Shown in pieces: positions 6,620 to 52,202 of a stretch of 64,000 bases of DNA. Numbering within the stretch: the first letter of the stretch is position 1; every line of letters begins with the position of its first letter. The stretch is from the NCBI GenBank assembly GCA_017533825.1, contig JAFWIE010000058.1, forward strand, positions 17,728-81,727, read 5' to 3'. This stretch comes from Atopobiaceae bacterium (GTDB lineage: Bacteria > Actinomycetota > Coriobacteriia > Coriobacteriales > Atopobiaceae). The notes under the pieces are model-generated. The model ran no database searches. It was not told the DNA's origin and saw only the letters and a list, made by a program, of their open reading frames with translations. The position numbers were made by a program, and so were the translations under genes.

Positions 6620-7498
6620 CTAAACGCATAAATCGAGTGGCAAGTCAGAAATGTCTTTGAGCCTTCGCCCCATGATCAATGCTTCCAAGGCATCAAGTGA
6701 ATCATCAACACCGCGTTCCTGCGAATATTGCTCCACTGCCTGTTGAAGCTCATACAGCGCGACATGATAAACACAATCGATATCTCCGGTACCAAGCGCC
6801 AATGAAGCCAGCCTTGAGGGCAGCGGTTCACCCGTGACTACGACAATATGAGGAAGGCGCCCCTTTCGATTGCGTATGAGGTTAAGTGCCTCTGTTCTAC
6901 TGTTTTGCGCTCGATCTGAACGAATGGTCCATTTTGCTGAAATTGATGCATGCAGAATGGGTTTACCTCCGTTTGACGCCCTCAAATCCGCTGCACCAGC
7001 TATTCCATCTTCAACAATCGTTTTACCCTCATTCATGTCATCATCGGAAACAAGCCCTCGCCAAACCACAATATCAGGAGAGACAACGTAGTCATTACCT
7101 ATCGCCATCCGAAGCTCGCTATCCTTCTCAACCATAGCTGCGAGATGAGCAAGATGTTCATACTGCGCGAATCCTTCGGCAATCCTATGACCTCGATTAC
7201 CGAGATTTGCCACATGCCAATCTCCCGGCCTCAATTGCTGTAGCTCACGAAATGTCCTCGCTATATAATCTGCAAGCTCACGCTCAAACACGGCACCGCT
7301 TGTTTGCCCACGCAGTTTTTTTCCACGAGGGGCGTCTAATATACGAGCTAAATGCAGTGCTATTTCTCGTGATGACCTGCTGCTCAAATCTGCATTGGAG
7401 GCTACTTCCCCATCCACAACCAACAAACCTGACTCGCATAGCCGCGTATGAAACAGATTTCTCTCAAATGCCAGCAACGAAGGACTCATATGAGACAT
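6620..7498 (-). CDS. Type II restriction endonuclease, NgoMIV/Cfr10I-like (CCGG-core family)
   Basis: ORF 6620..7594 in lower-GC DNA. Contains SPDIVVW (PD), SISAKWTIRSDRAQNSRTE = SxK, then R-S-D-R at K+4..K+7 and E at K+14. This matches my recollection of NgoMIV (D140, K187, R191-S-D-R194, E201). Start is either ATG 7498 or ATG 7489; the latter forms an ATGA overlap with the methylase stop. Confidence 0.6.
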   Translation of the reverse strand: MSHMSPSLLAFERNLFHTRLCESGLLVVDGEVASNADLSSRSSREIALHLARILDAPRGKKLRGQTSGAVFERELADYIARTFRELQQLRPGDWHVANLGNRGHRIAEGFAQYEHLAHLAAMVEKDSELRMAIGNDYVVSPDIVVWRGLVSDDDMNEGKTIVEDGIAGAADLRASNGGKPILHASISAKWTIRSDRAQNSRTEALNLIRNRKGRLPHIVVVTGEPLPSRLASLALGTGDIDCVYHVALYELQQAVEQYSQERGVDDSLDALEALIMGRRLKDISDLPLDLCV

Positions 7499-8427
7499 CT
7501 CGCAATCTCTCGTGCAACCGCCTCCGCGACTGGAGGAGGAAATGCATTTCCGATTTGTCGATAGGCTTTTGTTTTTCCCTTTCCGAAGTCCCATTCGTCA
7601 GGAAAGCCCTGAATTCGTGCGACCATGCGTGTCGTAAGGCGGGGCATTCCAACAAAGTCTTGGTCAGGTGCGGCATCAGCAATACCCTTACCATCTACAC
7701 CCAATGCAGCCCAAGCCCGCTTAGCTCGCACTGGACCAAGGTCGGGACCACCATGTTTAGTTGATCCTCCAACTACAGTTGGAGCAATACGATTGGCTCC
7801 ATCTGCCCAAATCTTTGCCTGCCGCCATGACCTCTCCTCCATGAGATCCAATAGCGTCTCTCCCACTGTAGGAGCTTCGCCATAAGCATCTGTGGACGGA
7901 AATACAAAATCCCTCTGAACGTCACGGCGCAGACCTACAATCACCACGCGGGGCCTGAGCTGTGGAACTCCGTAGTCCGAGGCATTTAGCAGGCTAATCC
8001 ACACTCGATACCCCATACGATTCAATTCGGCTAGAATCGCTTTGCGATAATCATCAAACTTTGACGTGAGCAAACCACGTACGTTCTCAAACATCACCGC
8101 ACGAGGATGAATATCATCGACAAGCCGTAACGCGTAAGGAAACATATCGCGCTCATCGTCTGCACCCAATCCCTTCCCCGCTATTGAGAATGGGGGACAT
8201 GGAACACCGCCAGCAAGCAAATCGATGCCTTCATACTCCGACCCGTCAAATTCGCGCAAATCCGCATTGATTACATTCCAGTCCGGCCGATTACGTAAGA
8301 GAGTCGCACAATAATCGGCCTCAATCTCAACCAGACCAACGTGCGTGAAGCCCGCCCGTGACGTTCCAAGAGCTTGCCCACCCGCACCGGCGCAAATCTC
8401 TAACACTTCTAGATTCTTTCTCGCCAA
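7486..8427 (-). CDS. dcm: DNA (cytosine-5)-methyltransferase
   Basis: 313-aa ORF with C5-MTase motifs: I LEICAGAGG, IV GGVPCPPFSIAG, VI ENV, VIII QLRPR, X NAFPPP. Confidence 0.9.
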   Translation of the reverse strand: MARKNLEVLEICAGAGGQALGTSRAGFTHVGLVEIEADYCATLLRNRPDWNVINADLREFDGSEYEGIDLLAGGVPCPPFSIAGKGLGADDERDMFPYALRLVDDIHPRAVMFENVRGLLTSKFDDYRKAILAELNRMGYRVWISLLNASDYGVPQLRPRVVIVGLRRDVQRDFVFPSTDAYGEAPTVGETLLDLMEERSWRQAKIWADGANRIAPTVVGGSTKHGGPDLGPVRAKRAWAALGVDGKGIADAAPDQDFVGMPRLTTRMVARIQGFPDEWDFGKGKTKAYRQIGNAFPPPVAEAVAREIARCLI

Positions 8428-8496
8428 CTAAACCCACCCCCAATCTTTCTGATTCGAAAACATACAACGAAGACGGGACTACAATGCATCCAACGA

Positions 8497-9678
8497 CTAG
8501 CAGTAGCTGTCCCAGAGGGCCTGCCAGGCAGGCATGGAGTCGACGATGGTCTCGTAGCTCACGCAGTAGCCCACGCGCACCCATCCGGGGCAGCCGAACG
8601 AATCGCTGGGGACTGGCAACAGCTCGAAGCTCTTCGCCCGCTCAAAGAACGCGTTGGCGTCTGGCTCGAGCGCCTTCATCCACAGGTAGAACGCGCCCTG
8701 CGGCTCGACGAACTCATAGCCGATCTTTGCCAGGCCTTCGGTGAGTGCCTTGCGGTTGCGGGCGTACGCATCGATGTTGGTCGGCTCGTCCACGCAGTCG
8801 ATGAGAACCCTCTGGAAGAGTGCGGGGGCGCACACGAAGCCCATCTTCCGGCCAGCACCGGCCACGGCAGGCACCAACCGATCATGCTCGGGATTCGTAT
8901 TTGGCACGAGAACCCAGCCAATGCGCTCGCCGGGCAGGCTCAGCGACTTGGAGTACGAGTAGCACACGAGCGTGCGATCGTAGAGGTCGGGCACCCACGG
9001 GACCTCGACATCGTAGGCAATCTCACGGTACGGCTCATCGCTGATAAGGTAGATGGGTTGACCAAGTTCGCCGCCCTTCTTGCGCAGAAGCTCGGCAAGC
9101 TCTGCGAGGTTCTCGCGCGCATACACCGATCCCACGGGATTGTTGGGCGAGTCGATCATTACCGCCTTGGTGAGCGGGGTGATGGCATCCTCGACAGCGG
9201 CAACGTCAATCTGGAACGTCTGGGCGTCCGCCATGACCTCAACGCACTCAGCACCTGCGTTCTGGATAAAGACGGCATACTCGGGGAAGTAGGGCGCGAT
9301 GACAATCACTTGATCGCCCTCGTTGCAAATCGCATTGAGCACGATCGAAATGGATGCGGCGGCGCCACACGTGAGGTAGAGATCATCCGCACCATATGTC
9401 GTACCGAAGCGCCGATTGAGTGAGGCCGCCACGGCATTGCGCGCAGCAGGAAGACCGTTTGCAGGCGTGTAGCCATGCAGGGCAGTGGCGGGAAGGGTCA
9501 GCGCATGGCTTATGGAGTCACGAACGGCATCGGGCGCGGGCACGCTGGGATTGCCCAAGGAGAAATCGTAGACGTTCTCGGCACCAATCTCTGCCTTGCG
9601 GGCCGCACCATAGGCCGCAATCTCGCGAATGCTCGACTTAGAGGCCCCGTAAGCGTAGCTCTGCTCGTTTATGCTCAT
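8497..9678 (-). CDS. Class I/II PLP-dependent aminotransferase (aspartate/aromatic-type)
   Basis: 393-aa ORF with GAGAGGAG RBS. Contains NPSVP, IDSPNNPVG and YSYSKSLSLPGERIGW (PLP lysine motif). Confidence 0.85.
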   Translation of the reverse strand: MSINEQSYAYGASKSSIREIAAYGAARKAEIGAENVYDFSLGNPSVPAPDAVRDSISHALTLPATALHGYTPANGLPAARNAVAASLNRRFGTTYGADDLYLTCGAAASISIVLNAICNEGDQVIVIAPYFPEYAVFIQNAGAECVEVMADAQTFQIDVAAVEDAITPLTKAVMIDSPNNPVGSVYARENLAELAELLRKKGGELGQPIYLISDEPYREIAYDVEVPWVPDLYDRTLVCYSYSKSLSLPGERIGWVLVPNTNPEHDRLVPAVAGAGRKMGFVCAPALFQRVLIDCVDEPTNIDAYARNRKALTEGLAKIGYEFVEPQGAFYLWMKALEPDANAFFERAKSFELLPVPSDSFGCPGWVRVGYCVSYETIVDSMPAWQALWDSYC

Positions 9679-9950
9679 AAAAAGCTCCTCTCGATTGCGT
9701 ATGGCACATTGTAGCGCAGCCCCTGCTCACTTTCCCACAGCGGGAACGCGAACTCCTGAGGTGGAAACGTCGGCAAGGAGGCGATATGTGGATGCGGCGT
9801 GGCAAAGCAATGTAGGGCTTGTGACATTGGGTTTCGTAGTTTAGCGAGCACCCAAAGGGGAGAGAATGAGTGTAGCAGCAAATGACGCGACACGTCATTT
9901 CCCTTCTAGCTTGCGCGAGGCCAGCGTGCAACTTGCCAGAAGACGGCTAC

Positions 9951-9984
9951 AGGCCACCGGGTCCCTCCTTCCGCCCGGTGGCCT
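9951..9984 (-). terminator. Hairpin ending the dlt-associated unit
   Basis: aggccaccggg (9951..9961) pairs with cccggtggcct (9974..9984), immediately downstream of the stop at 10015 on the minus strand. Confidence 0.5.
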
Positions 9985-10014
9985 GTTCCTGTTCAAGCCT
10001 GCTTTCGCTCATCC

Positions 10015-11202
10015 TCAATAGCGATTTGTTTGCCCGTATCCCGCTGAACTACCAGCCGAGCTGCCCGAGCCGCCATACGAATCGTCGTCGTACGAATTTG
10101 CATTGTCGTACGAGTTGGTGTTGCCGTACGTCGAGTCATCAGACGTCGCACCACCGGTCGCATCACCATACGTGGAGTTGCCATACGTCGAGCCTGAGGA
10201 GGAAGAGCCGTAATCGCTCGACCCGTCGCCATCCGAGTAGTCATCGTACCCGTAGCGATCCTCGTCATCGCTACCACCATAGGTATCGTCGTCATACCCC
10301 GAACCGGACTCACTTGAATCGTAGGTGCCCGACGTTCCACCGGTCGACTCCCCGGTATTGTAGCCATAGCCGTTGTCGTCTCCGGCCTCTCCCGTCTCGT
10401 CCTTCTTCTGGATTCGCAGACCTATCGCCTCGGCTGCATCCAAGTTTTGGCCTATGTCATCCACGAGGATGTCGTACCCGGCACGAGCGATCATCCACCC
10501 ATCGACTCCCAAGGAGGGATCGCACACGCTTCCCACACCGTCCAAGTTCGTTACCAGGCACAGTGCGCTTCCGTACTCTTCGCCGCTCGGCATCGAACGG
10601 ACAATCGGCACGGCGATGGCATCCGCGTAACCGAAGTAGCGTAGGCAAAGAGCAAGCACCGACGAGAACTCATAGTAGTCGCCTTGATACCCACCCATAC
10701 CATCATCGCTGGAGAAGTAGTCGCGCGCGGAACGAGCAACCCAGTCGGTACCCATGGGCTTGTCGACGCGATCGAGATACGTGCTCAGGACGATGGCATC
10801 GTACGTCTCCTTGGCAGCCTCTTCGACCTTGGCATCCTCAGGCGTGTGCTCGTCACAAAATGCCTTGATCCACGCATCGAGCTCTTCGTTGCCCACCGTG
10901 AAGCTGCCCGCTTGGTTCCAAGGATCAGCAACGCCCGCATAAGGCGCCGCTTCCTCGATTACCACTCCGTTGGCCTGATCTTCGCCCCTAATGGTGGCTT
11001 GCGCCTCGACTATCGAGTTGTTTGCGTATCGGTAAACGAAGACACCGCCGGCAAGGGCGGCAGCAAGGCATACGATGGGAAGGATACACGCGACAATGTC
11101 ATGCAGTATGGAGCCGCCTCGCTTCTGCTTCTTCTCCACCCGCTCTTCGTCTTCCGTACTGCGCACCGTGCACCTCCCACCCGCAGCGCTGCCCTTGGTC
11201 AT
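10015..11202 (-). CDS. Membrane-anchored transglutaminase-fold paralogue lacking the catalytic Cys and His, with a Tyr/Gly/Ser/Asp-rich tail
   Basis: 395-aa ORF with one N-terminal TM (ILHDIVACILPIVCLAAALAGGVFVY). It aligns without gaps to the neighbouring paralogue, but GDYYEFSS replaces GNCYEFAA and YGSALCLV replaces GDHGLVYV. About the last 120 aa are low complexity (YGYNTGESTGGTSGTYDSSESGSGYDDDTYGG...). Confidence 0.6.
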   Translation of the reverse strand: MTKGSAAGGRCTVRSTEDEERVEKKQKRGGSILHDIVACILPIVCLAAALAGGVFVYRYANNSIVEAQATIRGEDQANGVVIEEAAPYAGVADPWNQAGSFTVGNEELDAWIKAFCDEHTPEDAKVEEAAKETYDAIVLSTYLDRVDKPMGTDWVARSARDYFSSDDGMGGYQGDYYEFSSVLALCLRYFGYADAIAVPIVRSMPSGEEYGSALCLVTNLDGVGSVCDPSLGVDGWMIARAGYDILVDDIGQNLDAAEAIGLRIQKKDETGEAGDDNGYGYNTGESTGGTSGTYDSSESGSGYDDDTYGGSDDEDRYGYDDYSDGDGSSDYGSSSSGSTYGNSTYGDATGGATSDDSTYGNTNSYDNANSYDDDSYGGSGSSAGSSAGYGQTNRY

Positions 11203-11255
11203 TTCTATCCCCGCATGCGCGGGTCCATCATCCGTTCTTGACGCTCTGGATTCAG

Positions 11256-12347
11256 TTAGTCATTCTCCACGTCTTGGATCTGCACGTTGTATGCCGTTTC
11301 CTTAAGCATCCAACCATTGGTCCCCAACGAGGTGTCGCACAGGCTCGGCGTACCGTCTGTATTCGTCACGTATACCAGGCCGTGATCGCCCCAATCGCCA
11401 CTCTTCAGCTCGAGGATGACCGCTTCGGCATGAGCATCTTCCAAGCCAAGGTATTGGAGACAATAGCTGAGAAACGCCGCGAACTCGTAGCAGTTGCCTG
11501 AGCGGTCGTTCTCGTAGTACTGCCGCGCATACTCTATGCGCCAGTCCTTGCCAGCGGGATGCTGAGCATCATCGCGCTCCACGTACTCGGACCAAGCGAC
11601 GCCCTTGTATACCTCGAGGGCAGCGGTATCGATGTCCATATCGGTCGTGGCAATGCCGTCACAGAATTCCTTGACCTCCTCGTCGAGCGTCGCGTCACCC
11701 GTGGTGAACGTGCCCGAAGTAATCCAAGGCGACTTGACGCCGTTGCCGGACTTTGAGTCCTTGCGTGTAGACGTTTCGCTCGACGTCTCTTTCGATGTGG
11801 ATGTGCGCGCGTCAGCAGACGAGTCATCATCCTGCGTCGCGTCACCGGACTGCACCTGGGACGTCCCCTCACCTTCGGCCGAGGAGGCGGCCGCTACCTC
11901 AGCAGCACCCGAGCCAGCGGATCCGCCCACCGACTTCAGAACCAGTGAGCGCGTTACGAACGACGTTATCGCAATGGCAACGACGAACGCCACGAGCGTA
12001 GGGATGACCGGAAGACCCTGCCTGACGTCTGCCGGCCGAGAAGAGCGGGTGTCTCGCTCCCCTTCCCTGGTACGCGGCGTGGGACGAGCAGGCTCCACAC
12101 CCACCGCGCGATTCGCCGTGGAACTACGTCGCGGCGTCGCCGACCGGTCCGTCGCCTTTGTCCCAGAGGCAGCGGCAGCCTGTCCCCTTGTCGCGCCTGT
12201 GCTCTGAGCGCGTCGCCGCGTCGGCTGTTGACGCCTCACGCCCTCGTCGCGCGCTTGAGGACGATTGGACGAACCACCACGTCTGATTCGCGAACTGTCA
12301 ACGGACGCGGTACGACGCCGCCTTCCGTCCTCTGTAGCGTTGCTCAT
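11256..12347 (-). CDS. Membrane-anchored transglutaminase-like cysteine peptidase-fold protein with an Arg-rich cytoplasmic N-terminus
   Basis: 363-aa ORF. The N-terminal ~110 aa are R/S/T-rich, followed by a TM (LPVIPTLVAFVVAIAITSFV). The C-terminal domain has GNCYEFAAF .. GDHGLVYV .. LCDTSLG, which resembles a Cys-His-Asp transglutaminase-core triad. Confidence 0.6.
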   Translation of the reverse strand: MSNATEDGRRRRTASVDSSRIRRGGSSNRPQARDEGVRRQQPTRRRAQSTGATRGQAAAASGTKATDRSATPRRSSTANRAVGVEPARPTPRTREGERDTRSSRPADVRQGLPVIPTLVAFVVAIAITSFVTRSLVLKSVGGSAGSGAAEVAAASSAEGEGTSQVQSGDATQDDDSSADARTSTSKETSSETSTRKDSKSGNGVKSPWITSGTFTTGDATLDEEVKEFCDGIATTDMDIDTAALEVYKGVAWSEYVERDDAQHPAGKDWRIEYARQYYENDRSGNCYEFAAFLSYCLQYLGLEDAHAEAVILELKSGDWGDHGLVYVTNTDGTPSLCDTSLGTNGWMLKETAYNVQIQDVEND

Positions 12348-12360
12348 TCCTCACACCTAC

Positions 12361-12537
12361 CTAGAACTGGTTATAGATAAACTCCGCCGAGGACCCGAAT
12401 CCCGAGAACGTGACAAAGAGAAAGGTGGTCACGAGGGCCGCAGCCACCGACGCACCCACCACCACACATGCCAATGCGGGATGCTCGCCCATCCACGCGT
12501 CGTAGCGATCGCGCAGTGTCTTTTTTCTCTTACGCAC
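12361..12537 (-). CDS. dltX: DltX-like small membrane protein (58 aa), missing from the ORF track
   Basis: Manual translation gives (GTG)VRKRKKTLRDRYDAWMGEHPALACVVVGASVAAALVTTFLFVTFSGFGSSAEFIYNQF*. GGAGG lies about 8 nt upstream. It has a single TM and the C-terminal FIYNxF motif characteristic of DltX. It sits 43 nt after the dltD stop. Confidence 0.7.
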   Translation of the reverse strand: MRKRKKTLRDRYDAWMGEHPALACVVVGASVAAALVTTFLFVTFSGFGSSAEFIYNQF

Positions 12538-12580
12538 CAATTCCCCTCCTCGAGGACCACCGACAAGGCGTTCCGTCTCT

Positions 12581-13744
12581 CTATGTTACCCCTTGGGCAA
12601 ATTCGTATATCGCCCGCTCCGCATCAATCCACCCCGTCCATCCAAAGTGGACAATGTCAAAGAGGAAGTAGCGCTCATACTCCCGATCGCTGAAGTCGGC
12701 CAACCGTGCGCCGGGATGCGCAAGCACCACATCGCGAATGCGCTGGTATGCCGCTGCGCGCGTCTCCGCGGATATGCCGATGTGGTCGTAGTATGGTCCC
12801 ATGCTGGGCTCTATGACCACGAGCGGCTGGACGCCGCACTCAGCACACACATCCATGAAGCAGGCGAGGTCATCGTATTCGGGCGTGTCGGTATAGGTCT
12901 CTTCCGCCCGGGCACCCTGCAACTTGTCGAGCACGGGCGCGAGCTCCGTCTTCCAGAACTCATCCTCCGCGCCCCACTCGTTGGTCGTGCTCCGTCGCAT
13001 CGCCTCGCTCAGCGCCTCGTTCCTAAGGGCATCCCAGTCCGGTGCCACCACATCACCTTGAGCGCGGGCGATGCCCCGGGACCGCACGTCAATGAGTTGC
13101 CCACGCAGGCGCAAATCATCGATGAGGGAGAGCACGCACCCGTCGATGCTGGCCAACGGATCGTCTCCGGACGCAGCACGCAATGTGGCTTCGTCAATCC
13201 CTTGTTCTGCAAGGCGCCTGCGCACATACGCACGCGTCTCGGCGTCGATGCGTTCGTTCTTGCAAAAGGCCCGATACAGCGTGTAGGAGAATCTCTCGCC
13301 AAAGGACGCGTTGTCCAAGCCACCATCCGTGTACTCGCCCAGACTCACTACGAGCACCACCTTGTTGCGCGGCAGACCTCCATCCGCGAGGGCTCCCAGA
13401 GCGATGGCATGCCAGAGCGCCTGGTCGAACGCCTCCCCCACCAACATAGGCCGTACGCCATAGTTCGTGGTACCAAACACCTGCGCCGGCACCTGGGCGA
13501 CCGTCGACGCTGGCGTGGAGAACTCAGACGAACCCAGCATGAGCAGGGAGTCCTCGGGAAGGTTTGCGCGCACGAAGTCCACGCTCGAGGACTTTGCACC
13601 AGAATACACATAGCCGTAATCGACGAGCGTATCCGTCGCTTCCTGCTTCGGCAGCAAGAGACACGTTGCCACCACAACGCAGGCGGCAACTGCAACGCCG
13701 CACCCAAGCGCGGCAAGTCTCCTATGCAAGGTGTGTGCTTTCAC
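12581..13744 (-). CDS. dltD: D-alanyl-lipoteichoic acid biosynthesis protein DltD
   Basis: 387-aa ORF with a GTG start after AGGAGAC. N-terminal anchor, the LGSSEF serine motif, and its position after dltC. Confidence 0.85.
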   Translation of the reverse strand: MKAHTLHRRLAALGCGVAVAACVVVATCLLLPKQEATDTLVDYGYVYSGAKSSSVDFVRANLPEDSLLMLGSSEFSTPASTVAQVPAQVFGTTNYGVRPMLVGEAFDQALWHAIALGALADGGLPRNKVVLVVSLGEYTDGGLDNASFGERFSYTLYRAFCKNERIDAETRAYVRRRLAEQGIDEATLRAASGDDPLASIDGCVLSLIDDLRLRGQLIDVRSRGIARAQGDVVAPDWDALRNEALSEAMRRSTTNEWGAEDEFWKTELAPVLDKLQGARAEETYTDTPEYDDLACFMDVCAECGVQPLVVIEPSMGPYYDHIGISAETRAAAYQRIRDVVLAHPGARLADFSDREYERYFLFDIVHFGWTGWIDAERAIYEFAQGVT

Positions 13745-13751
13745 GTGTCTC

Positions 13752-13991
13752 CTAGAGGCGCTCGCTCACGCGCGCAATGATCTTGTTGACCGTGTTCATC
13801 TCGCTCCGATCGAGCTCGGTAGGAGCGATCGATACACCGAACTCGTCCTTGATGGCCACGAGCAGCTCGATTGCTGCCATCGAATCAAGAATCTCCTCCT
13901 CGAAGAGATCGATGTCGCGCTCGTCCGCAACTTCGTCCTCACCCGAAATTTCCACTACGAGGTCCACAATCTGCTCTGCTATGTCTGCCAT
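13752..13991 (-). CDS. dltC: D-alanyl carrier protein
   Basis: ORF 13752..14015. The start MADIAEQ at 13991 follows GAGGAGG. Contains the LDSM phosphopantetheine serine motif. Confidence 0.85.
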   Translation of the reverse strand: MADIAEQIVDLVVEISGEDEVADERDIDLFEEEILDSMAAIELLVAIKDEFGVSIAPTELDRSEMNTVNKIIARVSERL

Positions 13992-14027
13992 GTCGTTCCT
14001 CCTCAACAAACGCAAACGATTGACACC

Positions 14028-15215
14028 TTATCCGAGCAAAGGCGTCACCACATATCCCCCAAACAGGGCAAAGCCAAAGAATACCGCCACCATGGTAACC
14101 GCCCATGAAGCAACCATGAACCACCTATCGCGGCGATGTGCCTTATAGAACTTCCACTTCTTCTGCATCGCATGACAACCGGCAAGCAACAGGCCGTGAT
14201 ACAGACCATATACGAGGTAATCCGGCGTGATGCCATGCCAGGCACCCATCAGGACCATGTTGAGCATGAAGCCGACGCACGCACAGGTCAGACGCGACTT
14301 GAACAGCTTATGCGAGATGGCGAACTGAGAAAAGCGCATGAACACAAAGTCGCGCAGCCACGTCGAGAGCGATATGTGCCAACGGTCCCAGAATTCCTTG
14401 ATGTCCGTGGCCACGAATGGCGCACGAAAGTTGCGCGGTACCTCGACTCCCAGCACGAGACCCAAGCCCATGGCCATGTCCGAATACCCGGCAAAGTCAA
14501 AGAAGAGGTCCATCCCGTAACCAAAGACGGTGACCAGCCAGCCGAGTACGCCACCTCCGACCACAACGGGAACGAACCACATGAACCACTGTGCGAGCGC
14601 AGCGCCGACGAACTTATACAAGGCGCCGAGGACGAACCAACCAAGTCCCCGATACAGTCGATCCAGGTACCCATCACGCGAGAGCGGCGTACGCACGTCC
14701 TGCACATAGGCACGGCTGCGCATGATGGGTCCCGAGGTGAACGTGGGAAAGAAGCTCAGGAACCCCAAGTACTCAAGGTACGTCATGTCGGTGATGAGTC
14801 CGTCATGCACCTCGAGGAGCACCTGCACGGCCTTGAACGTGATGTACGAGATGCCGAGGAAGCCGGGAAAATCCGGCCTCACGAGCACACCCACCTTATA
14901 CGCCACAAGCGGAAGCAGTTGCACCCCAACCAGCACACCATACGGCAGCGAGCGCATGCCATGCGGCGCGTCCTCGGAACGGCTTGAATCCTCCCGGGAC
15001 CAAAGCGCCACCCCATACAACGCGACCGATACCGCTAGGTACACCGCGGCATATATGAGCGTTCCCGGTGTCCTGAAGAACAACAGGAACAGCATGACCA
15101 CCGAGACAACGAGCGAATACCGCTTAAGCGGCCGCTCAAGCACTCCCATCACGCACGCAATGATAGCTATGGGTGCGCATAACACAAAGAATGCGGGCTC
15201 AACGTAGAAGTCCAT
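14028..15215 (-). CDS. dltB: MBOAT-family D-alanyl transfer protein DltB
   Basis: 395-aa polytopic ORF containing WDRWHISLSTWLRDFVF (MBOAT histidine region), located between dltA and dltC. Confidence 0.9.
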   Translation of the reverse strand: MDFYVEPAFFVLCAPIAIIACVMGVLERPLKRYSLVVSVVMLFLLFFRTPGTLIYAAVYLAVSVALYGVALWSREDSSRSEDAPHGMRSLPYGVLVGVQLLPLVAYKVGVLVRPDFPGFLGISYITFKAVQVLLEVHDGLITDMTYLEYLGFLSFFPTFTSGPIMRSRAYVQDVRTPLSRDGYLDRLYRGLGWFVLGALYKFVGAALAQWFMWFVPVVVGGGVLGWLVTVFGYGMDLFFDFAGYSDMAMGLGLVLGVEVPRNFRAPFVATDIKEFWDRWHISLSTWLRDFVFMRFSQFAISHKLFKSRLTCACVGFMLNMVLMGAWHGITPDYLVYGLYHGLLLAGCHAMQKKWKFYKAHRRDRWFMVASWAVTMVAVFFGFALFGGYVVTPLLG

Positions 15216-15224
15216 ATGGTTTGC

Positions 15225-16799
15225 CTAGGCGTCAATGAGGTCGGCAAGTGCCTTGCGATCTGCCTTTCCATTGCTGTTGAGCGGCATCTCGTCAAGATAC
15301 TTGAACGTGCGAGGAATCATGTACGATGGCAACATGTCGCGCACCTGCGCCTTGATCTGTCGCGTCAGACGCAAACCACGTTCGGCAGCGTCCCCAGCGG
15401 GGACCACGAAGGCGGTGAGGTGGTGAATGGCACCCCCACGTCGAACGGGCAGGACACATGCCATGTGTACGAGCGGCGTCGCGCACAAGGTCGCCTCAAT
15501 ATCGCCCAGCTCGATGCGGTAGCCATGCAGCTTTATCTGAAGGTCGAGTCTGCCGTGGAAGTAATACAGCCCATCAGCCTCACGCGTTACCTCGTCGCCC
15601 GTACGATACGATCGTCGTCCGCGCGCGAGGTGTTCCGGGCATCGTCCAAACGCGACCTCCGTCAGGTCGGGCCTGCCATAGTACCCCTTCGCAACCGTGT
15701 TGCCTGCCACGAATAGCTCTCCGGGCTTGCCGTCAGGCACCTCTTCCAGCGTCTCAGGGTCGAGCACCACGAGGTCGGACCACTTCTTGGCATAGCCAAT
15801 CGGCAAGGCCACGTCATCCGCAAGCATCTCGTCGGTTATCTCGCACAGCGTGATAAGGTCGGTCGACTCAGTGGGACCATACCCGTTGTAGACATGCAAT
15901 CCGGGGAAGCGCCGCTTCACCTCGCGCACCGTCGCCGGTCGCAGCGTCTCTCCTGCCAAGAGCATGCGCTTGAGATGCGGCATGAGCGTGGCATTATATT
16001 TGTCGTCGGCAAGGCATTGCTCGACGAAGCTCGGCGTGGAGACCCAGTCGGTCGCGTCGCAGGTGGCAAGCACCTCGAAGGTCGTTCCCAGACTTGCGTC
16101 CGCCTCCTTCTCGAGGGCGAAGGTCGTGTCGCCTCGCGTGGTGCCACACACCAAGTCAGTGATGCTCACATCGAAGGAATAGGGGGTGCGGTTGAACCAG
16201 ATGCGGGGCCCGTCCTCCTCGAATACGTAGTCGCTCATCATCCAACGCGAGAACTCGTCCACGCATTCGGTGGTAATCTCGACGCCCTTGGGGTCACCCG
16301 TCGAACCCGAGGTGAACAGTATGTAGAAGGTGCGTGTCGCATCGGTGCCGGGTAGCGCTGCCACCTCGTCCTCACAGGGCGTGGAGGTGCAGATCTCCGT
16401 AAGCTCAGCGATGGAAAGCAGTCGGGCATCTCCCGCCCCACTCTTGCCACTGCCTGAGGCAGTGGTGTCGATGAGGAGCGTATTGCCAGTCTGAGCAACG
16501 ATGCGCGCCACGCGCTCGGGCGGATACACCGTGTCTACCGGCGCGTACGCATGGCCGGACTTGGCGCACGCCAGCATCGAGACCAACATGTACGGCGACT
16601 TGTGTCCGTAGATCACCACCGGTACACCCGAGTCCACATGCGTGGAATCGGCCAGCCAACAGGCAAGCGCATTCGACCGCGCACGCAGCTCGGCATACGT
16701 AATCTGCTCTCCGCGACTATTGCAGAAGGCTACTCGATCGGGGTTTTGGAGCGCTTGTGCGTCGATGGCGTCGACAAGCTCACTACCAGTCATGCGCAT
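15225..16799 (-). CDS. dltA: D-alanine--D-alanyl carrier protein ligase
   Basis: 524-aa adenylation enzyme with FTSGSTGDPKGV, GYGPTE, YRTGD and GKADRK. Confidence 0.9.
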   Translation of the reverse strand: MRMTGSELVDAIDAQALQNPDRVAFCNSRGEQITYAELRARSNALACWLADSTHVDSGVPVVIYGHKSPYMLVSMLACAKSGHAYAPVDTVYPPERVARIVAQTGNTLLIDTTASGSGKSGAGDARLLSIAELTEICTSTPCEDEVAALPGTDATRTFYILFTSGSTGDPKGVEITTECVDEFSRWMMSDYVFEEDGPRIWFNRTPYSFDVSITDLVCGTTRGDTTFALEKEADASLGTTFEVLATCDATDWVSTPSFVEQCLADDKYNATLMPHLKRMLLAGETLRPATVREVKRRFPGLHVYNGYGPTESTDLITLCEITDEMLADDVALPIGYAKKWSDLVVLDPETLEEVPDGKPGELFVAGNTVAKGYYGRPDLTEVAFGRCPEHLARGRRSYRTGDEVTREADGLYYFHGRLDLQIKLHGYRIELGDIEATLCATPLVHMACVLPVRRGGAIHHLTAFVVPAGDAAERGLRLTRQIKAQVRDMLPSYMIPRTFKYLDEMPLNSNGKADRKALADLIDA

Positions 16800-16801
16800 C
16801 C

Positions 16802-16951
16802 CTAGTCATCGTTGACGACGGGCATGTCCTCGCCGTAGCAATTGTCCTGCTCTTCCTTCTGGCCGCCGCCACAGCCGGCAAGCCCGAGCGTGGCAAACGC
16901 CAAGGTAATGGCCAGTATCATCGAAAGGAACTTGCGCGTACGGTTGTTCAT
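16802..16951 (-). CDS. 49-aa lipoprotein micro-ORF translationally coupled to dltA
   Basis: Manual translation gives MNNRTRKFLSMILAITLAFATLGLAGCGGGQKEEQDNCYGEDMPVVNDD*. It has a basic n-region, a hydrophobic core and an LAGC lipobox. GGAG lies 7 nt upstream. The stop is 2 nt before the dltA ATG. It is below the ORF-track length cutoff. Confidence 0.6.
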   Translation of the reverse strand: MNNRTRKFLSMILAITLAFATLGLAGCGGGQKEEQDNCYGEDMPVVNDD

Positions 16952-16987: not shown

Positions 16988-16996
16988 ATATTACCA
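16988..16996 (-). promoter_or_regulatory. Candidate extended -10 promoter element (TGGTAATAT) for the dlt unit
   Basis: The minus strand reads TGGTAATAT between the ftsH stop (17002) and the lipoprotein micro-ORF. No hairpin terminator lies between ftsH and this site. Confidence 0.35.
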
Positions 16997-42521: not shown

Positions 42522-45332
42522 CTATTCGTCGAGCAGACTCTCGTCGAAGTCCTCCTCGCCGACATCCACGCTCGTCGGGTCTTCGACCTGGATGTCAAGC
42601 ATCGCCTGCGCCTCGCCCGCACCGGCCTGACGCCTTGGCGCCTTCTTCTTGCGGGCGATCATGCGCGCCATCGCGCTCACCCGATCGCCTTCGGCAAGAT
42701 TCATGATCTTGACTCCTTGCGTGGCACGGCCAAGCTTGCTGATGTCTTCCGCCTTCACGCGAATCATCACGCCCGCCTCGCTCACGATCATGAGCTCGTG
42801 CTGCGGACCAACCACACGACAGGCCACCAGCTTGCCCTTGCGAGCCGTCATGGCGATGGTGAAGACGCCCTGGCCACCGCGCCTGTGCTCGGGATACTCC
42901 GAGACGGACGTGCGCTTACCGAAGCCGTTCTCGGTCATGACGACGAGGTCACCGTTGCCGTTGGTTATCTCCATGCCCAGTACCCGCGCATCGCCCTTGA
43001 GGTTGATGCCACGCACGCCGGAAGTGTCGCGACCCATGGGCCGTACCTGCGACTCGTCAAAGAGGATGGCCTTGCCATCGGTGCTGCAGAGGATGACCTT
43101 GCTCCCCGGCTTCACGCGGCGCACGCCCACGAGCTCGTCATCTACCTTCAGCTTTATGGCGATGAGACCACCCGCACGATTCACGTCATAGGCGCTCATG
43201 GAGGTCTTCTTTACCATGCCCGACGCCGTAGCGAACATGAGGAACTCATCCTCGGGGAAGTCCCTGGCCGTAAGCACGGCAAGCGGGTGCTCGCCATCCG
43301 CGAGACTGAGCACGTTGACGAGCGCCGAGCCGCGGGCCTGACGGCTTCCCAGCGGCAACTCGTGCACCTTCAGACGGTACACCTTGCCTTTGTTGGTGAA
43401 GAAGAGCACGTAGTCGTGGGTACTCGCCACAAAGAGGTCTTCGACGTAGTCGTTGTCCTTGAGCGAGAGGCCTCGCATGCCTTTGCCGCCCCGACGCTGC
43501 GAGCGATACGTCGCCACCGGAAGGCGCTTGACGTAACCTGCGTGCGTGAAGGTGACGACCATGTCTTCCTCGGCGATGAGGTCCTCCACGTCGAGGTTCT
43601 CGGCAGCGCCTGCATTGATCTGCGTGCGACGCGGCGTGCCAAAGCGTGCCGCGATCTGGCGCAGCTCGTCCTTGATGACGCCGAGCATCTTGTCCTCATG
43701 GTCGAGCAGATCCTGCAGGTAGGCAATCCGCTCGCGCAGCTCCTCGATCTGGGCGACGAGCTCGTCGCGCGCCAGTGCCGTCAGACGACGCAGGCGCATC
43801 TGGAGGATGGCCTCGCACTGAATCTCGGAGAGGCCGAAGCGCTCGTTCATGCGCCGCTTGGACTCCTTGTCGTCGCGCGAGCTGCGGATGATGTGGACGA
43901 TCTCGTCGATGTTGTCGACGGCGATGAGCAGACCCTCGCGCACGTGCAGGTCCTTCTGCGCCTTGGCAAGGTCGAACTTGGTGCGCCGGGTGACAACGTC
44001 CACTTGATGGTCGATGTAGTAGCGCAGCATCTCGAGCAGGGTGAGGGTGCGCGGCACGCCGTCCACGAGGGCGATGTCGATGACGCCGAAGTTCGATTGG
44101 AGCTGGGTGCGTTTGTAGAGGTTGTTGAGCACTACCTGCGGCACAGCGCCCTGCTTGAGATCGATGACGATGCGCATGCCCTTGCGGTTCGACTCGTCGC
44201 GCATGTCGGAGATGCCCTCGATGCGCTTCTCGTTGACTTGCTGGGCAATCTTCTCTTGCAGCGTGCCTTTGTTCACCTGGTAGGGGATCTCGGTGACGAC
44301 GAGCCGCTGGCGGCCGCCCTTGCGCTGCTCCACGTGCACCTTCGAGCGGACGGTGATGGAGCCGCGGCCCGTTGCGTAGGCGTCGCGAATGCCGTCGGTT
44401 CCCATGATGATGCCGCCGGTGGGGAAGTCTGGCCCAGGAAGCACCTTCATGACGTCGTCGAGCGTGGCGTCGGGGTTGTCGATGACGAGGCATACCGCCT
44501 CAACCACCTCCGAGAGGTTATGGGGCGGCACGTTGGTCGCCATGCCCACTGCGATACCGGATGAACCGTTGACCAGCAGATTTGGGAAGCGGCTCGGAAG
44601 CACCGCGGGTTCCGAGAGGGACTCATCGTAGTTGGGTTGGAGATCGACGGTCTCTTTGTCGAGGTCGCGCAGCATCTCCATCGCGGCATGGGTCAGGCGG
44701 CTCTCCGTATAGCGCATGGCCGCCGGGGGGTCGCCGTCCACCGAGCCGAAGTTTCCATGGCCATCCACGAGCGGCAGGCGCATCGAGAAGTCCTGCGCCA
44801 TGCGCACCATGGAATCGTAGATGGCCGCATCGCCATGGGGGTGGTACTTGCCCATGACCTCGCCGACGGTCCACGCACTCTTCTTGTGCGGGCGCGTCGG
44901 CACGATATGGGCCTCGTTCATGGCGTACAGGATGCGGCGGTGCACGGGCTTGAGGCCGTCGCGCACGTCCGGAAGGGCGCGGGCGACGATGACGGACATG
45001 GAGTACTCGAGGAAGGAGGTCTTCATCTCCTGGCTCATCTCGATGGGCTTGAGCGTACCGCCATGGATGTCCGTGAGGTCAAGGCGCGTTCCCGCCTCGT
45101 CGCTGATGGTATGGGAGAGACCCGCGCCCGCGAGGCCGAGCGAACCCTGCTCGGGTGGATAGTCGTCCTCCTCGTCGTCATAGACGTCAGAGGGGTCCTC
45201 GTCCTCGAGCTCGGGGTCAACCTCCATGTCGTGCATCGCGCGATTGACGAGGTCGTCCAGGTGGTCGCGTCCGTCCGGCCCCCTCAGCTCCTCCTCGTCG
45301 TCGTTGCGAATCTCGTCGTCGTTATCTGCCAA
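42522..45332 (-). CDS. gyrA: DNA gyrase subunit A, with an acidic ~95-aa N-terminal extension if the TTG at 45332 is used
   Basis: 936-aa ORF. The TTG start follows AGGAGAC. Contains [35 protein letters not shown], the active-site AAMRYTE, and C-terminal beta-pinwheel repeats. Confidence 0.95.
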
Positions 45333-45526
45333 GCTAGTCTCCTATTCCAAAACGCGCCGCGCAGCGGCGCACACACTTTCTTCTCCCCGCGTTTGCACGG
45401 ACGAAGCCCGTACGCTTCCGATTCAGGCTCCTTGGCCGCCGCGCGGTGCTGGTCGAACGCAAGTTCCGCAGCAACGCGAGGACTGTTCGAGCGGGTGACC
45501 AACACCGCGCGGCGGCCACGAATGCC

Positions 45527-47623
<2,097 letters not shown>

Positions 47624-47643
47624 TCAGGGCGTTTTTACATCGC

Positions 47644-48165
47644 CTACGTATCCTCAAGCTTACGGCGCGCCAACGTGGCGCACATCGCGCGAGAGACGCT
47701 TTGGCGAAGGCCATCGGGGAGTTCGGACGTCAACTCCCTCACGCGCTCGAGTTCCAGCGCGCTCAGTTCCCGGGGCTTGCTCGGCACTCGCGTTGCGGTG
47801 GTGGGCGCCTTCGGCCTCGAGGTGGAGGGGGGACGGCCCACGTCGAAGCGAATGTCGCTCACCGCGATTCCCGCGCGGGCGATGCGGGCGAGGTAGAGGT
47901 CTTTGTTGGTGCCAAGTTCTTGCGCGAGGAGACCCGAGTCAAGGCGTACGACCATGATGGGGTCCACGCCCGCGCGACCGGACTTGCGCAGCCACACGCC
48001 CGTGGTATGGGCACGCTCGCGGTCCCCGTTTGCCTGAAACCACGCACGTGCGGCACGCTGGGCATCCGAGAGCTTCGACGTTCCCGCCGCCCCGAACAGC
48101 GCACCAACAAGGTCGCCCGCTCGCGCGACGCCCCGATTCGCTCCGTCAACAACCGCCAAAGTCAA
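47644..48165 (-). CDS. dciA: DUF721 / DciA-like protein (syntenic with the actinobacterial helicase-operating protein between recF and gyrB)
   Basis: 173-aa ORF that overlaps the recF stop by 20 nt. The call rests on its position between recF and gyrB, its size and its basic character. Confidence 0.6.
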   Translation of the reverse strand: MTLAVVDGANRGVARAGDLVGALFGAAGTSKLSDAQRAARAWFQANGDRERAHTTGVWLRKSGRAGVDPIMVVRLDSGLLAQELGTNKDLYLARIARAGIAVSDIRFDVGRPPSTSRPKAPTTATRVPSKPRELSALELERVRELTSELPDGLRQSVSRAMCATLARRKLEDT

Positions 48166-49237
48166 TCACCTCCGCGCACTCGAGCAGCTCGGGAGGGAAG
48201 TATTGGAGGTTCGCGGTGGTGATGACCGTCTGGATCCTCCCGACGACGAACTCCGTGACGGCCGCCCTCCTGCGTGCGTCCAGCTCGCTCATGACGTCGT
48301 CGAGCAGCAGCAGCGGCTGCTCCCCCACGACGTCACGCGCGACGGCGACCTCCGCCATCTTCCAGGCCAACGCCACCGAGCGCTGTTGCCCTTGGCTTCC
48401 GAAACTCCGCGCATCGCGTCCCCCGATGGAGAACGACACGTCATCACGATGGGGCCCCACGAGCGTCACGCCACGTCGCAGCTCCTCGGCGCGGCGCTCG
48501 GCGATGGCATCCAGGATGAGGTCACGCAGCTCGTCGCGGGTGAGCCCTGCGGCATCGGGCCCAATCGAGCAGTCGTACACGCACTCGAGGGGCTCGTCAG
48601 CCACGCGCTCGTACACGCGGCGTATCTGCGTGCGCAGACGCTCGAAAAGCGCCATCCGCGCATGCAGCAGGGTGGCGCCGCCCAATGCCACGGCGCCGTC
48701 CCACGCCTCGAGCATCCCGAGGTCGACGTGGGCCTCCTTAAGCAGGCGGTTTCGCTGCTCGACCGCTCGCGCATACGCCTTGGAAACCTTGCGGTAGCCC
48801 GCGCTCGCCTGCGCCCCGAAGGCGTCGAGGGCGTCTCGCCGGGCGCGGGCCGACCCCTTGACCAGAGAGAGGTCGTCGGGGCAGAAGAGCACCGACATGA
48901 GCGTCGCGGAGAGGTCAGCCGGCCGACAGGGCTTGCCGTTGCGCTCGTACGTGCGCCGCCTGCCCCGCGCGGCGCGGCAGCACACGTCTATGACGCGCCC
49001 GTCCCCCTCGAGGCGAGCCTTCGCCCGCCCCTCGTCCGCGCCGTCGCGGACGAGCTCGGTCGTTCGCGGGTGCCTGAACGACGTTCCCGCAGTCAACAGC
49101 TGAAGCGCCTCGACGGTGTTCGTCTTGCCCGTCGCGTTCGGGCCGCACAGCACGTTGAGGCCGGGCGTGAGCTCGATGGTGCGCTCCTCGAAGCTGCGCC
49201 AGTCGCTCATCGCGACGCAGGTGACGGTGAGCCCCAC
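48146..49237 (-). CDS. recF: DNA replication and repair protein RecF
   Basis: 363-aa ORF (GTG start) with Walker A GPNATGKTN, the signature GSQGQQRS and LLLLDDV. Confidence 0.95.
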   Translation of the reverse strand: MGLTVTCVAMSDWRSFEERTIELTPGLNVLCGPNATGKTNTVEALQLLTAGTSFRHPRTTELVRDGADEGRAKARLEGDGRVIDVCCRAARGRRRTYERNGKPCRPADLSATLMSVLFCPDDLSLVKGSARARRDALDAFGAQASAGYRKVSKAYARAVEQRNRLLKEAHVDLGMLEAWDGAVALGGATLLHARMALFERLRTQIRRVYERVADEPLECVYDCSIGPDAAGLTRDELRDLILDAIAERRAEELRRGVTLVGPHRDDVSFSIGGRDARSFGSQGQQRSVALAWKMAEVAVARDVVGEQPLLLLDDVMSELDARRRAAVTEFVVGRIQTVITTANLQYFPPELLECAEVIDFGGC

Positions 49238-49241
49238 GTGG

Positions 49242-50345
49242 CTACATCCTTACGGGCATGAGGAGGTACAGATAGTTGATGGAGGCATACGACTTGAAGA
49301 TGGCTGGCTGCATGGAGCTGAGCAGCTCGAGCGTCACATCCGCATCGGACGAGACGGCCGCCACGCAGTCGAGCACGAAGTGGAAGTTCAGCGCTATGGA
49401 CATCGACTCGCCCTCGATCTCCACGCCCATCATCTCGCTCGCCTCGCCCTGATCGGGTGACGAGGCGGAGAGGCGCAGCACCCCTCCGTCGGCGTCCGCG
49501 TCGAAGCGCACGGAGGGGTTCGACTGCGCGATGACCGAGACGCGGCGGAGCGCCTGCGCCAGCTGCTGGGCGTCAATGCGCACGACGGCATTCTGGGAGG
49601 TGGGGAGGAGTTGGCGGAAGTTGGGGAAGTTGCCCTCGATGCGCCGCGAGACGTAGGTGGTGCTTCCGAACGAGAAGACGACCTGGCTCGCGGTGATGCC
49701 AATGGTGATGCGCTCCGTCATGGACGGCAGCGACAGCACGTCGTGGAACGTGACGCCCGGTACAATGGCCTCAAACGCCTCGTCGGACTGAGACGTCTCG
49801 GTATTGGAGTCGCACACCGCCAGACGGTACGAGTCCGTGGCCACCAAGCGAATGGTGTTGTTCTCCACCGTGAGCAGCACGCCAGAGAGGATGGGGCGGG
49901 AGGTGTCCTTGCTCGTCACCTTGTACACCTTGTCCACCATGCTGGAGAGGAGCTCGCTCGGCAGCTCGATGGAGCGATCCGGCTCGATGGATGGGAACTC
50001 GGGGAAGTCGGCGGGGGAGAGTGTGTTGAGCCTGAAGTGCGACCGCTCGCACGACAGCCGCATCTGGGTGCCGTCGTCCTCGAAGGAGACCGCTGAATCC
50101 GGAAGGTTTTTCACCACGTTGGAAAGTGTCTTGCCCGAGACGACCGTCTCGCCCGGCTCCTCCACGTTTGCCGCGATGGCATGACGGATTGAAATGTTGC
50201 CGTTGGTGCTCTGGAACTCGATGCAGCCGTCCTCGGCTGTGATTTTGACCCCTGCCAGAATCGGCTGGCCTGATGTGGACGCGATGCCCTTGGAGACGAC
50301 GCTGAGCGCGCGCATGAGCGCGGACTGGCTTACGATGAACTTCAT
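49242..50345 (-). CDS. dnaN: DNA polymerase III beta sliding clamp
   Basis: 367-aa ORF starting MKFIVSQSALMRALSV, in the conserved position after dnaA. Confidence 0.95.
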   Translation of the reverse strand: MKFIVSQSALMRALSVVSKGIASTSGQPILAGVKITAEDGCIEFQSTNGNISIRHAIAANVEEPGETVVSGKTLSNVVKNLPDSAVSFEDDGTQMRLSCERSHFRLNTLSPADFPEFPSIEPDRSIELPSELLSSMVDKVYKVTSKDTSRPILSGVLLTVENNTIRLVATDSYRLAVCDSNTETSQSDEAFEAIVPGVTFHDVLSLPSMTERITIGITASQVVFSFGSTTYVSRRIEGNFPNFRQLLPTSQNAVVRIDAQQLAQALRRVSVIAQSNPSVRFDADADGGVLRLSASSPDQGEASEMMGVEIEGESMSIALNFHFVLDCVAAVSSDADVTLELLSSMQPAIFKSYASINYLYLLMPVRM

Positions 50346-50608
50346 CTCTCCCCCTGTTCTTATTAATTAGTTCTTAGAGAATACAGTAGTAGTAACAAGG
50401 TATGTTCAAATGTGGACAACATTGTATTCACGCAGGTAGATGCCGGTATTATGCGGTCGCTTCCCTCAACGTGTTCTCGCGGTGTTCGACTTTCTTCACA
50501 CAATCGAAAGACGCTTTGAACACTTGTTGTGGGTTTGTATGCTCCTCTCTACACGGCGTCTACGGGTTTTGAACACGTCGTATTACGGATGTGGTCGCTG
50601 GTTTGGGG
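50346..50608. other. dnaA-dnaN intergenic region: candidate oriC segment
   Basis: 263-nt non-coding gap. It contains an AT-rich stretch (ttcttattaattagttcttagagaatacagtagtagtaa), one consensus actinobacterial DnaA box and four GAACAC/GTGTTC hexamers. Confidence 0.5.
50411..50419. promoter_or_regulatory. DnaA box TGTGGACAA (= TTGTCCACA)
   Basis: Exact match to the TTGTCCACA consensus used by high-GC Gram-positive bacteria. Confidence 0.6.
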
Positions 50609-52072: not shown

Positions 52073-52134
52073 TGGTCTCCTTGTAGAAGCATGGTGATGA
52101 AACAACAGTATATGATGAAAACCGCGCTCGGGGA

Positions 52135-52143: not shown

Positions 52144-52202
52144 TGTAGAAAAATCGGCATCTGCCCGCATCGTGTCAACATTCACGAGTCCACGGCGTGG
52201 GG

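Follow-up and report, generated by a model that had tools for sequence, protein, structure and literature searches.

Which genes belong to the dlt (D-alanylation) unit found at positions 10015-16951 of a 64,000-nucleotide stretch of an Atopobiaceae bacterium (contig JAFWIE010000058.1, positions 17,728 to 81,727; hereafter the window), and what would its additional members do in the alanylation pathway? The steps of teichoic-acid D-alanylation that take place in the cytoplasm are well understood, whereas the extracellular distribution of the alanyl groups, their editing and their transfer to wall-linked polymers are still being worked out, and the papers on DltE and FmtA describe these extracellular alanylation steps as open. 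A first-pass annotation proposed here an eight-gene D-alanylation unit with extra extracytoplasmic partners, comprising a lipoprotein micro open reading frame (ORF), dltA, dltB, dltC, dltD, a dltX gene placed after dltD, and two membrane-anchored transglutaminase-fold proteins, called here P7 and P8. The comparison with related loci retains seven of these genes as a conserved unit, including those for P7 and the lipoprotein, and sets P8 aside. Accordingly phrased, the explanation that we favour with moderate confidence is a seven-gene dlt cassette under one promoter, with P7 acting on alanyl esters or acyl intermediates and P8 being a mere neighbour.

The window proteins were mapped onto 18 genome loci and about 25 metagenome loci (designated by L numbers), and the database relatives closest to the window are rumen and gut metagenome-assembled genomes (MAGs) labelled Atopobiaceae, Coriobacteriaceae or Coriobacteriales. 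The composition of micro-lipoprotein, dltA, dltB, dltC, dltD, dltX and P7 is kept in at least 22 distinct loci in differing chromosomal contexts. P7 comes directly after the dltD-dltX pair in 17 of the 18 genome loci and also in the divergent metagenome loci L029, L030, L032 and L033, where DltD is 56-60% identical and the P7 domain 42-48% identical to those of the window. Thus, the linkage of P7 to dlt genes, on whose conservation in relatives the first-pass annotation had made its proposal depend, holds over a wide range of divergence. The genes 5' of the cassette vary between loci, and those found 3' of P7 vary as well, being a PALP enzyme, GH1, phosphotransferase-system EIIA, LigB/AMMECR1, YfhO, GT8, a cation efflux protein or a pair of MBOAT and AlgX proteins. 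Because these downstream genes change from locus to locus, P7 is the conserved 3' end of the cassette. On the basis of sequence comparison, the conserved unit is composed of seven genes, not eight, and would correspond to a lineage-specific form of dlt that occurs in Coriobacteriales, the Atopobiaceae included. While its core belongs to a system already known, the gene order and both additional conserved components are novel. In the searchable literature, no report was found of dlt operons in which dltX is 3' or which include a conserved micro-lipoprotein or a partner resembling transglutaminases, nor of any dlt genes in Coriobacteriia.

Gene identities were assigned by searches with Pfam and NCBIfam models and their curated cut-offs. 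For DltA, the alanine:carrier-protein ligase (15225-16799; this and all other genes of the unit are on the minus strand), Pfam AMP-binding domains are recognized, the score with NCBIfam NF003417 is 472.7 bits, just below the cut-off of 476, and the best solved relative is the DltA from Bacillus cereus (PDB code: 3DHV, E = 2.9e-110). The MBOAT-family membrane acyltransferase DltB (14028-15215) reaches 393.8 bits with TIGR04091 against a cut-off of 375 and also matches Pfam MBOAT, whereas for the D-alanyl carrier protein DltC, NF003464 gives 81 bits against a cut-off of 68. The mechanical ORF of the latter starts at TTG 14015, with homologues being called at 79 residues, which corresponds to a start at ATG 13991 (13752-13991). 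The SGNH-type transferase DltD (12581-13744), with a predicted N-terminal transmembrane anchor, matches PF04914 with E 7e-72 and TIGR04092 with 227.5 bits against a cut-off of 150. From these matches, DltA, DltB, DltC and DltD are encoded together as a dlt alanylation core, all of them being clear orthologues of the proteins of the Firmicute dltXABCD system.

A difference from the Firmicute system is found in DltA. In the alignment with 3DHV, Ala282 (codon 15954-15956, minus strand) lies opposite Cys269 of B. cereus DltA, so that the equivalent of this D-alanine-selectivity residue is absent from the window protein. Cys269 is reported to be a major determinant of the selectivity for D- over L-alanine, and the D/L preference is relaxed in the C269A mutant (PMC4176424). 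All DltAs of the window type carry Ala at this site, except for a Val in L010, and those from L019, L020, L022 and L027, which belong to a type with about 40% identity, keep the Cys.

The gene that follows dltD (12361-12537, or to 12540 if translation starts at TTG 12540 instead of GTG 12537) encodes a DltX-type acyl-shuttle microprotein of 58/59 residues, with a K/R-rich N-terminus, one transmembrane helix, and the C-terminus FSGFGSSAEFIYNQF, which topology prediction places outside. All 24 aligned homologues terminate in FIY(N/S)QF without exception, their final 15 residues, FSGFGSSAEFIY(N/S)QF, hardly vary, and a FIYNQF ending is also found in more divergent loci. This corresponds to the acyl-shuttle motif of DltX, FXYXXF at the extracellular C-terminus (PMC12148441), and the DltX from Lactiplantibacillus plantarum ends in FIYNEF (PMC13653941); in both groups, then, the protein is a single-pass microprotein with this ending. 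The Coriobacteriales-type DltX differs in being longer (58-75 residues) and in its gene position. The first-pass annotation had placed dltX after dltD, and it lies directly 3' of dltD in every related locus examined, whereas it is reported to be immediately 5' of dltA in most cases, with Firmicutes making up 805 of the 809 dltX-bearing species (PMC5541007). Moreover, searched at E <= 10 with the Pfam DltX model (DUF3687), the window protein and the 24 family members give no match, although the HMMER filters may hide very weak matches. Matches of the family to PsbJ were rejected as look-alikes based on the transmembrane helix and a GFGSS stretch. Judged by architecture and motif, the 59-residue protein is a DltX, and it is called functional because of these two features, even though neither the sequence model nor the gene position would identify it. 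This suggests that DltX can be 3'-encoded and evade the current Pfam model and, because this form escapes the model, that DltX is probably under-annotated outside Firmicutes. The remaining differences from the Firmicute system are the actinobacterial host, the Ala of DltA at the Cys269 site, and the addition of two conserved genes, those for the lipoprotein and P7.

The first of these additions is a micro-lipoprotein of 49 residues (16802-16951), composed of a signal peptide, a lipobox (LAGC), a short linker, and the C-terminal motif QDNCYGEDMPV. The ORF thus combines a signal peptide with a lipobox of the form [LVI][ASTVI][GAS]C, and its lipidation is predicted from the sequence. Homologues occur in 17 dlt cassettes, with a lipobox L(A/T/V)(G/A)C, a variable signal peptide, and a linker that varies from 5 to 20 residues; nevertheless, the C-terminal QDNCYG(E/D)DMPV(I/V)N is invariant among them. 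The 15 distinct DNA versions of this motif differ almost exclusively at synonymous third positions, which indicates that the gene is translated and under purifying selection, and the ratio of nonsynonymous to synonymous substitution rates (dN/dS) against the closest relative, L011, is 0.175. Taken together, the lipobox, the invariant motif and the synonymous codon variation support the proposal that the micro-ORF is a real gene. The additional claim that it occupies the usual place of dltX stands only for the clade of the window, where the gene is 5' of dltA; in other lineages (L008, L016, L017, L019, L020, L022 and L027), it lies between dltA and dltB. No described family was found for it in Pfam or NCBIfam, where only weak signal-peptide-like matches were obtained; the best candidate, NF058595 ('lipo-invert tail'), was rejected since its 22.9 bits fall short of the cut-off of 37 and derive from the signal peptide only. 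In a set of 5.8 billion proteins, just 8 homologues are called, probably because ORFs so short are seldom called.

The second addition, P7 (11256-12347), presents an R-rich cytoplasmic region (residues 1-107), a transmembrane helix at approximately 113-135, a linker rich in S, A, G and T, and a domain of ~160 residues (203-363). P7 and P8 have one N-terminal transmembrane helix each, with positive-inside flanks. In the P7 alignment of 22 homologues, the motifs GNCYEF, GDH and CDT, which provide the Cys, His and Asp, are invariant, and a survey of the family found the Cys-His-Asp triad in 113 of 172 domains. The AlphaFold2 (AF2) model of the P7 domain has a mean pLDDT of 95.6 and a pTM of 0.91, and all its significant Foldseek matches (E 1e-4 to 1e-2, TM-score ~0.5) belong to the transglutaminase-like cysteine peptidase superfamily: PeiP, PeiW, LapG, a Cytophaga cysteine protease, arylamine N-acetyltransferases, Streptococcus pyogenes TglA, and vasohibins. 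An exhaustive search with a profile of the P7 family retrieved 199 clusters at 50% identity, of which 88 have E <= 1e-10, and the profile reaches proteins with the Pfam Transglut_core domain at E 1e-9 to 1e-5, thus providing a transitive link. Direct searches gave much less: P7 is below threshold on every Pfam model, a PDB sequence search returned low-complexity matches only, and neither Pfam nor NCBIfam assigns P7, P8, the DltX-like protein or the lipoprotein. Among the Pfam clan models, only Acetyltransf_2 was hit, its 17.6 bits (E = 0.0036) lying below the cut-off of 22.8. An identity of P7 as an arylamine N-acetyltransferase was rejected given this sub-threshold score, the ~160 residues of the domain compared with the 260-290 residues of the three-domain enzymes, and its outward orientation.

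According to the model and the structural matches, P7 has an ordered Cys-His-Asp triad on a transglutaminase-like fold, and its catalysis is predicted. Hence, the description of both downstream proteins as membrane-anchored and of transglutaminase fold is borne out, in the case of P8 by homology for the fold. P7 shares the predicted fold and the ordered triad with the members of the superfamily (PeiP/PeiW, LapG/BTLCP, arylamine N-acetyltransferases and vasohibins) but differs from them in being a compact domain of ~160 residues on a membrane tether. The literature search found no link between this superfamily and dlt, and a search for S. pyogenes TglA gave nothing useful.

In the case of P8 (10015-11202), a different picture emerges. 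P8 is 38% identical to P7 over 163 residues (E = 4e-36) and has Tyr-Ser-Asp at the triad positions, with Tyr in place of the Cys and Ser in place of the His. About 30 clusters of P8-like proteins share the loss of the Cys and His and the retention of the Asp, and have invariant residues of their own. For this reason, a recently decayed copy was rejected as an identity for P8, which rather belongs to an established lineage of pseudo-enzymes. Judging from these residues, P8 is a catalytically dead paralogue of P7. Its layout comprises a transmembrane helix at approximately 33-57, the pseudo-enzyme domain at approximately 90-250, and an acidic tail rich in G, S, D and Y at 255-395. This tail of 140 residues (10015-10440), predicted to be extracellular, is rich in Gly (21%), Ser (18%), Asp (16%) and Tyr (12%), and (S/D)YG-like units recur along it.

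The distribution of P8 does not follow that of the dlt genes. P8-like genes are found 3' of the cassette only in the clade of the window (L001/L012, L011, L013, L014 and L015), and P8 is absent from most dlt cassettes beyond it. On the other hand, a P8-like gene is found directly after ftsH, without dlt genes, in L031, L034-L036, L038, L040 and L041, and the aminotransferase gene seen in the window comes after it in L036 and L037. The cassette therefore behaves as one block that loci have or lack between ftsH and P8, and P8 is part of the resident ftsH/aminotransferase neighbourhood, not a component of dlt. Together with the absence of the catalytic Cys and His, this withdraws the proposed linkage of P8 to dlt, and setting P8 apart as a resident pseudo-enzyme guards against over-reading the operon.

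In some relatives, other genes are found at the 3' side of P7. Between P7 and P8, L001/L012 (L001 10790-13815) and L014 (8584-11715) encode a second MBOAT protein together with an AlgX/DHHW SGNH protein, and in L022 (10495-13407) a 43%-identical MBOAT and an AlgX protein are located directly 3' of P7. The second MBOAT of L001, when translated, ends in FIYFQF, a fused acyl-shuttle motif, and fits the type of MBOATs with such a fusion that has been described (PMC12148441). The pair is probably a polymer O-acetylation module. It resembles the MBOAT-SGNH clusters of the PatA/PatB/Ape1 and AlgI/AlgJ/AlgX types in combining an MBOAT, here ending in FIYFQF, with an AlgX/DHHW protein, but differs from them as an optional add-on at the P7/P8 boundary; a second MBOAT/DHHW pair was looked for in the window and none was found. 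A long PLP-dependent PALP enzyme with an N-terminal extension, which might be connected with the supply of amino acids, is encoded 3' of P7 in L016 (11079-12497), L017 (10913-12217) and L023 (8713-10422).

Regarding the mechanism, the cassette would be read from one candidate promoter in the ftsH spacer. Following the Firmicute pathway, DltA would adenylate alanine and load it onto DltC, DltB would pass the alanyl group across the membrane to the Tyr of the FIYNQF ending of DltX, and DltD would move it onto an envelope polymer; this order of the relay, demonstrated in Firmicutes, is proposed here from the orthology of the proteins and the conserved DltX motif. P7, flexibly tethered to the membrane on its outer side, would either hydrolyse alanyl esters or transfer them to a second acceptor via an acyl-cysteine, the lipid-anchored peptide of ~24 residues would be the partner or the substrate of P7, and P8 would be non-catalytic and merely transcribed 3' of the cassette. 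The role of P7 would then be that of an 'eraser/relay', as for DltE and FmtA in Firmicutes, which remove D-Ala from teichoic acids as esterases and are unrelated serine enzymes with the penicillin-binding-protein/beta-lactamase fold. By analogy, our best guess for P7 is an extracytoplasmic alanyl-ester esterase or transacylase. This role is favoured because of the stable linkage to dltX, the flanking MBOAT-SGNH modules, the logic of operons that join a writer with an esterase, and acyl-cysteine chemistry; arylamine N-acetyltransferases transfer acyl groups in this way. DltE is encoded within L. plantarum's dlt operon, binds DltD and interacts with DltX (PMC13653941), and FmtA from Staphylococcus aureus is needed to put D-Ala on wall teichoic acid. 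P7 would be comparable to both as an accessory extracytoplasmic enzyme tied to the Dlt pathway, being also operon-encoded and outward-facing, but it has a Cys-His-Asp triad on a transglutaminase-like fold, no sequence relation to either, and an activity that is predicted. Thus, the cassette yields two concrete candidates for the extracellular steps, a cysteine enzyme with chemistry compatible with acyl transfer and a lipid-anchored peptide with an invariant motif.

Several observations weigh against this explanation or narrow it. The closest relative, L011 (MAG RUG14419), whose P7 domain is 94% identical to that of the window and whose flanks are 85% identical at the DNA level, looks like a natural partial knock-out: in 8386-10480, dltA, dltB and most of dltD are deleted, with recognisable remnants, and dltX is decaying (dN/dS 0.60, degraded transmembrane helix). 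In the same locus, dltC (0.04), the lipoprotein (0.18), P7 (0.15) and ftsH (0.03) are constrained, and P8 is intact and constrained. Since P7 and the lipoprotein remain under constraint in spite of these deletions, their strict dependence on the local Dlt proteins is doubtful, and their function would not be solely tied to them unless a second dlt locus exists in the L011 MAG. Also, the MAG RUG440 carries a second live P7 paralogue beside a MarR gene, away from dlt. The best structural matches of P7 are the wall isopeptidases PeiP/PeiW and the protease LapG, not esterases, and in its distant relatives, Transglut_core is accompanied by wall-binding domains (SLH, ChW or ricin), a typical feature of wall hydrolases. 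No lipoprotein gene was seen in the L010 cassette within the contig. Finally, as DltA is without the Cys269 equivalent, the transferred acyl group might not be D-alanine exclusively; this natural Cys269-to-Ala DltA raises the question of whether something besides strictly D-alanine is installed.

Some of these data also concern the relation between P7 and the lipoprotein. In L043 (1915-3158), on a contig where no dlt genes are found, a P7-like Cys-His-Asp gene is followed by a gene for a 66-residue lipoprotein with the lipobox LQGC and the sequence EDQCFGDDQPV, with glycosyltransferase genes adjoining, and in L027 an extra live copy of P7 lies directly 5' of the lipoprotein gene. The retention in L011, the paralogue in RUG440, the L043 pair and the L027 copy point to P7 and the lipoprotein being functionally paired.

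Given these observations, alternative roles for P7 have to be considered. P7 could be a wall (iso)peptidase or transpeptidase of the autolysin type that cleaves peptidoglycan peptides near the membrane or joins them, with its linkage to dlt arising from a need to coordinate the alanylation of anionic polymers with wall remodelling and not from an action on alanyl esters. In agreement with this, Foldseek ranks two pseudomurein endoisopeptidases, PeiP and PeiW, highest (E 1e-4 to 1e-3, TM-score ~0.5), its distant profile matches join Transglut_core with SLH, ChW or ricin domains, the P7-like gene in L042 adjoins a murB-like gene, and P7 is kept in L011 after the loss of dlt genes and has a non-dlt paralogue. 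However, P7 lacks a wall-binding domain, and its transmembrane helix and ~70-residue linker keep it at the membrane. Moreover, its adjacency to dltX persists although P7-domain identities range between 94% and 42% and all the genes 3' of it change, which exceeds what loose co-regulation tends to give, and O-acylation modules recur on both sides of P7. We consider this role for P7, the chief competitor of the favoured one, unlikely, yet worth keeping in sight. In a different scenario, the micro-lipoprotein would be the substrate of P7, its C-terminal peptide being cleaved or cross-linked, and the two would form an independent module riding in the dlt operon; the invariant Gln could be linked to a wall amine, giving a membrane-wall tether similar to Braun's lipoprotein, or a peptide signal could be released. 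The adjacency of P7-like and lipoprotein-like genes without dlt in L043, the P7 copy (P7b) that adjoins the lipoprotein gene in L027, the retention of both genes in L011, and the invariant Gln, Cys and Tyr of the lipoprotein motif agree with such a module, as does the similarity to LapG, a structural neighbour of P7 that acts in the periplasm as a protease dedicated to one substrate. Nonetheless, L043 is a single example whose similarity is weak (28% identity, E = 4.5e-5, from a search of small size), P7 and the lipoprotein gene lie at opposite operon ends, the latter beside dltA or dltB, L010 has P7 with no lipoprotein gene detected, and a P7-lipoprotein interaction is purely hypothetical. 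We give this possibility a small chance of being correct.

The eight genes could also encode one eight-component machine with P8 as an integral partner of Dlt. The gap of 53 nt between P7 and P8, without a significant hairpin or promoter-like element, their paralogy, and the P8-like genes 3' of the cassette in L001, L011, L013, L014 and L015 are compatible with this. Nevertheless, the P8-like genes beside ftsH in relatives without dlt largely refute it, and in addition to the cassettes without P8 beyond the clade of the window and the missing catalytic residues, P7 and P8 are separated by the MBOAT-SGNH pair or by ~500 nt in L001, L014 and L013. Such a machine is therefore very improbable. A more far-reaching proposal is that P7 and the lipoprotein constitute a new extracytoplasmic acyl-relay or tethering step of polymer alanylation. 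The Cys of P7 would take the alanyl group from the Tyr of DltX, from DltD, or from an esterified lipid-anchored polymer, and the second acceptor would be, for example, a wall-linked polymer, peptidoglycan, or the conserved Cys or Tyr of the lipopeptide. This proposal is quite speculative and of low probability; if true, Coriobacteriales would supply the kind of 'missing acyltransferase' that is sought in Firmicutes by the FmtA work, according to which the acyltransferase is still missing.

With regard to transcription, the first-pass annotation described eight tightly packed minus-strand genes with a single promoter-like element and a single convincing hairpin, and these descriptions were reproduced. 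All the ORFs were found, and the gaps from 5' to 3' are 2, 9, 36, 7, 43, 13 and 53 nt when DltC starts at ATG 13991 and the DltX-like protein at GTG 12537, the fifth gap being 40 nt if the latter starts at TTG 12540. The extended -10 promoter-like element TGGTAATAT (16988-16996, minus strand) is located in the 50-nt spacer between ftsH and the lipoprotein gene, 45 nt 5' of the first ATG. It is the sole TGnTAnnnT on the minus strand between 9900 and 17100, where ~4.2 would be expected from base composition, and 9 of the 16 related loci examined have a comparable TGnTAnnnT 44-65 nt 5' of their first cassette gene. At the other end, the GC-rich terminator-like hairpin at 9951-9984 (minus strand), 31 nt 3' of the P8 stop codon, has a stem of ~13 bp and a folding energy of -38.4 kcal/mol (z = -3.45), with 1 of 200 shuffled sequences folding equally well. 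A clear U-tract was not found after this hairpin, which is why a simple terminator scan misses it. The same consensus scan gave no site in any intergenic gap, and the folding of the 4 internal junctions is no better than that of shuffled sequence. Co-transcription of the eight genes is plausible from the sequence of the locus.

Finally, the genomic setting of the window, whose GC content is 60%, can be described. The cluster is preceded on its 5' side by ftsH and a phosphoribosyltransferase-family gene (Pfam Pribosyltran), and on its 3' side it is followed by a class I/II aminotransferase gene and then by a restriction-modification pair of the NgoMIV type. The latter (6620-8427, minus strand), just 3' of the aminotransferase gene, comprises an NgoMIV-type restriction endonuclease (Pfam E = 7.6e-115) and a C-5 cytosine DNA methyltransferase, and it is not at the same position in the related locus L001. 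Farther away, at 42522-58286, the minus strand carries gyrA, gyrB, recF, dnaN and dnaA, and the plus strand yidC, parA and parB, a gene content which indicates that the window spans the chromosomal origin region. A protein of 516 residues with HATPase_c and helix-turn-helix (HTH) domains is encoded between dnaA and yidC (52203-53753), and the dlt cassette, at a distance of ~35 kb from dnaA, has the same orientation as this gene.

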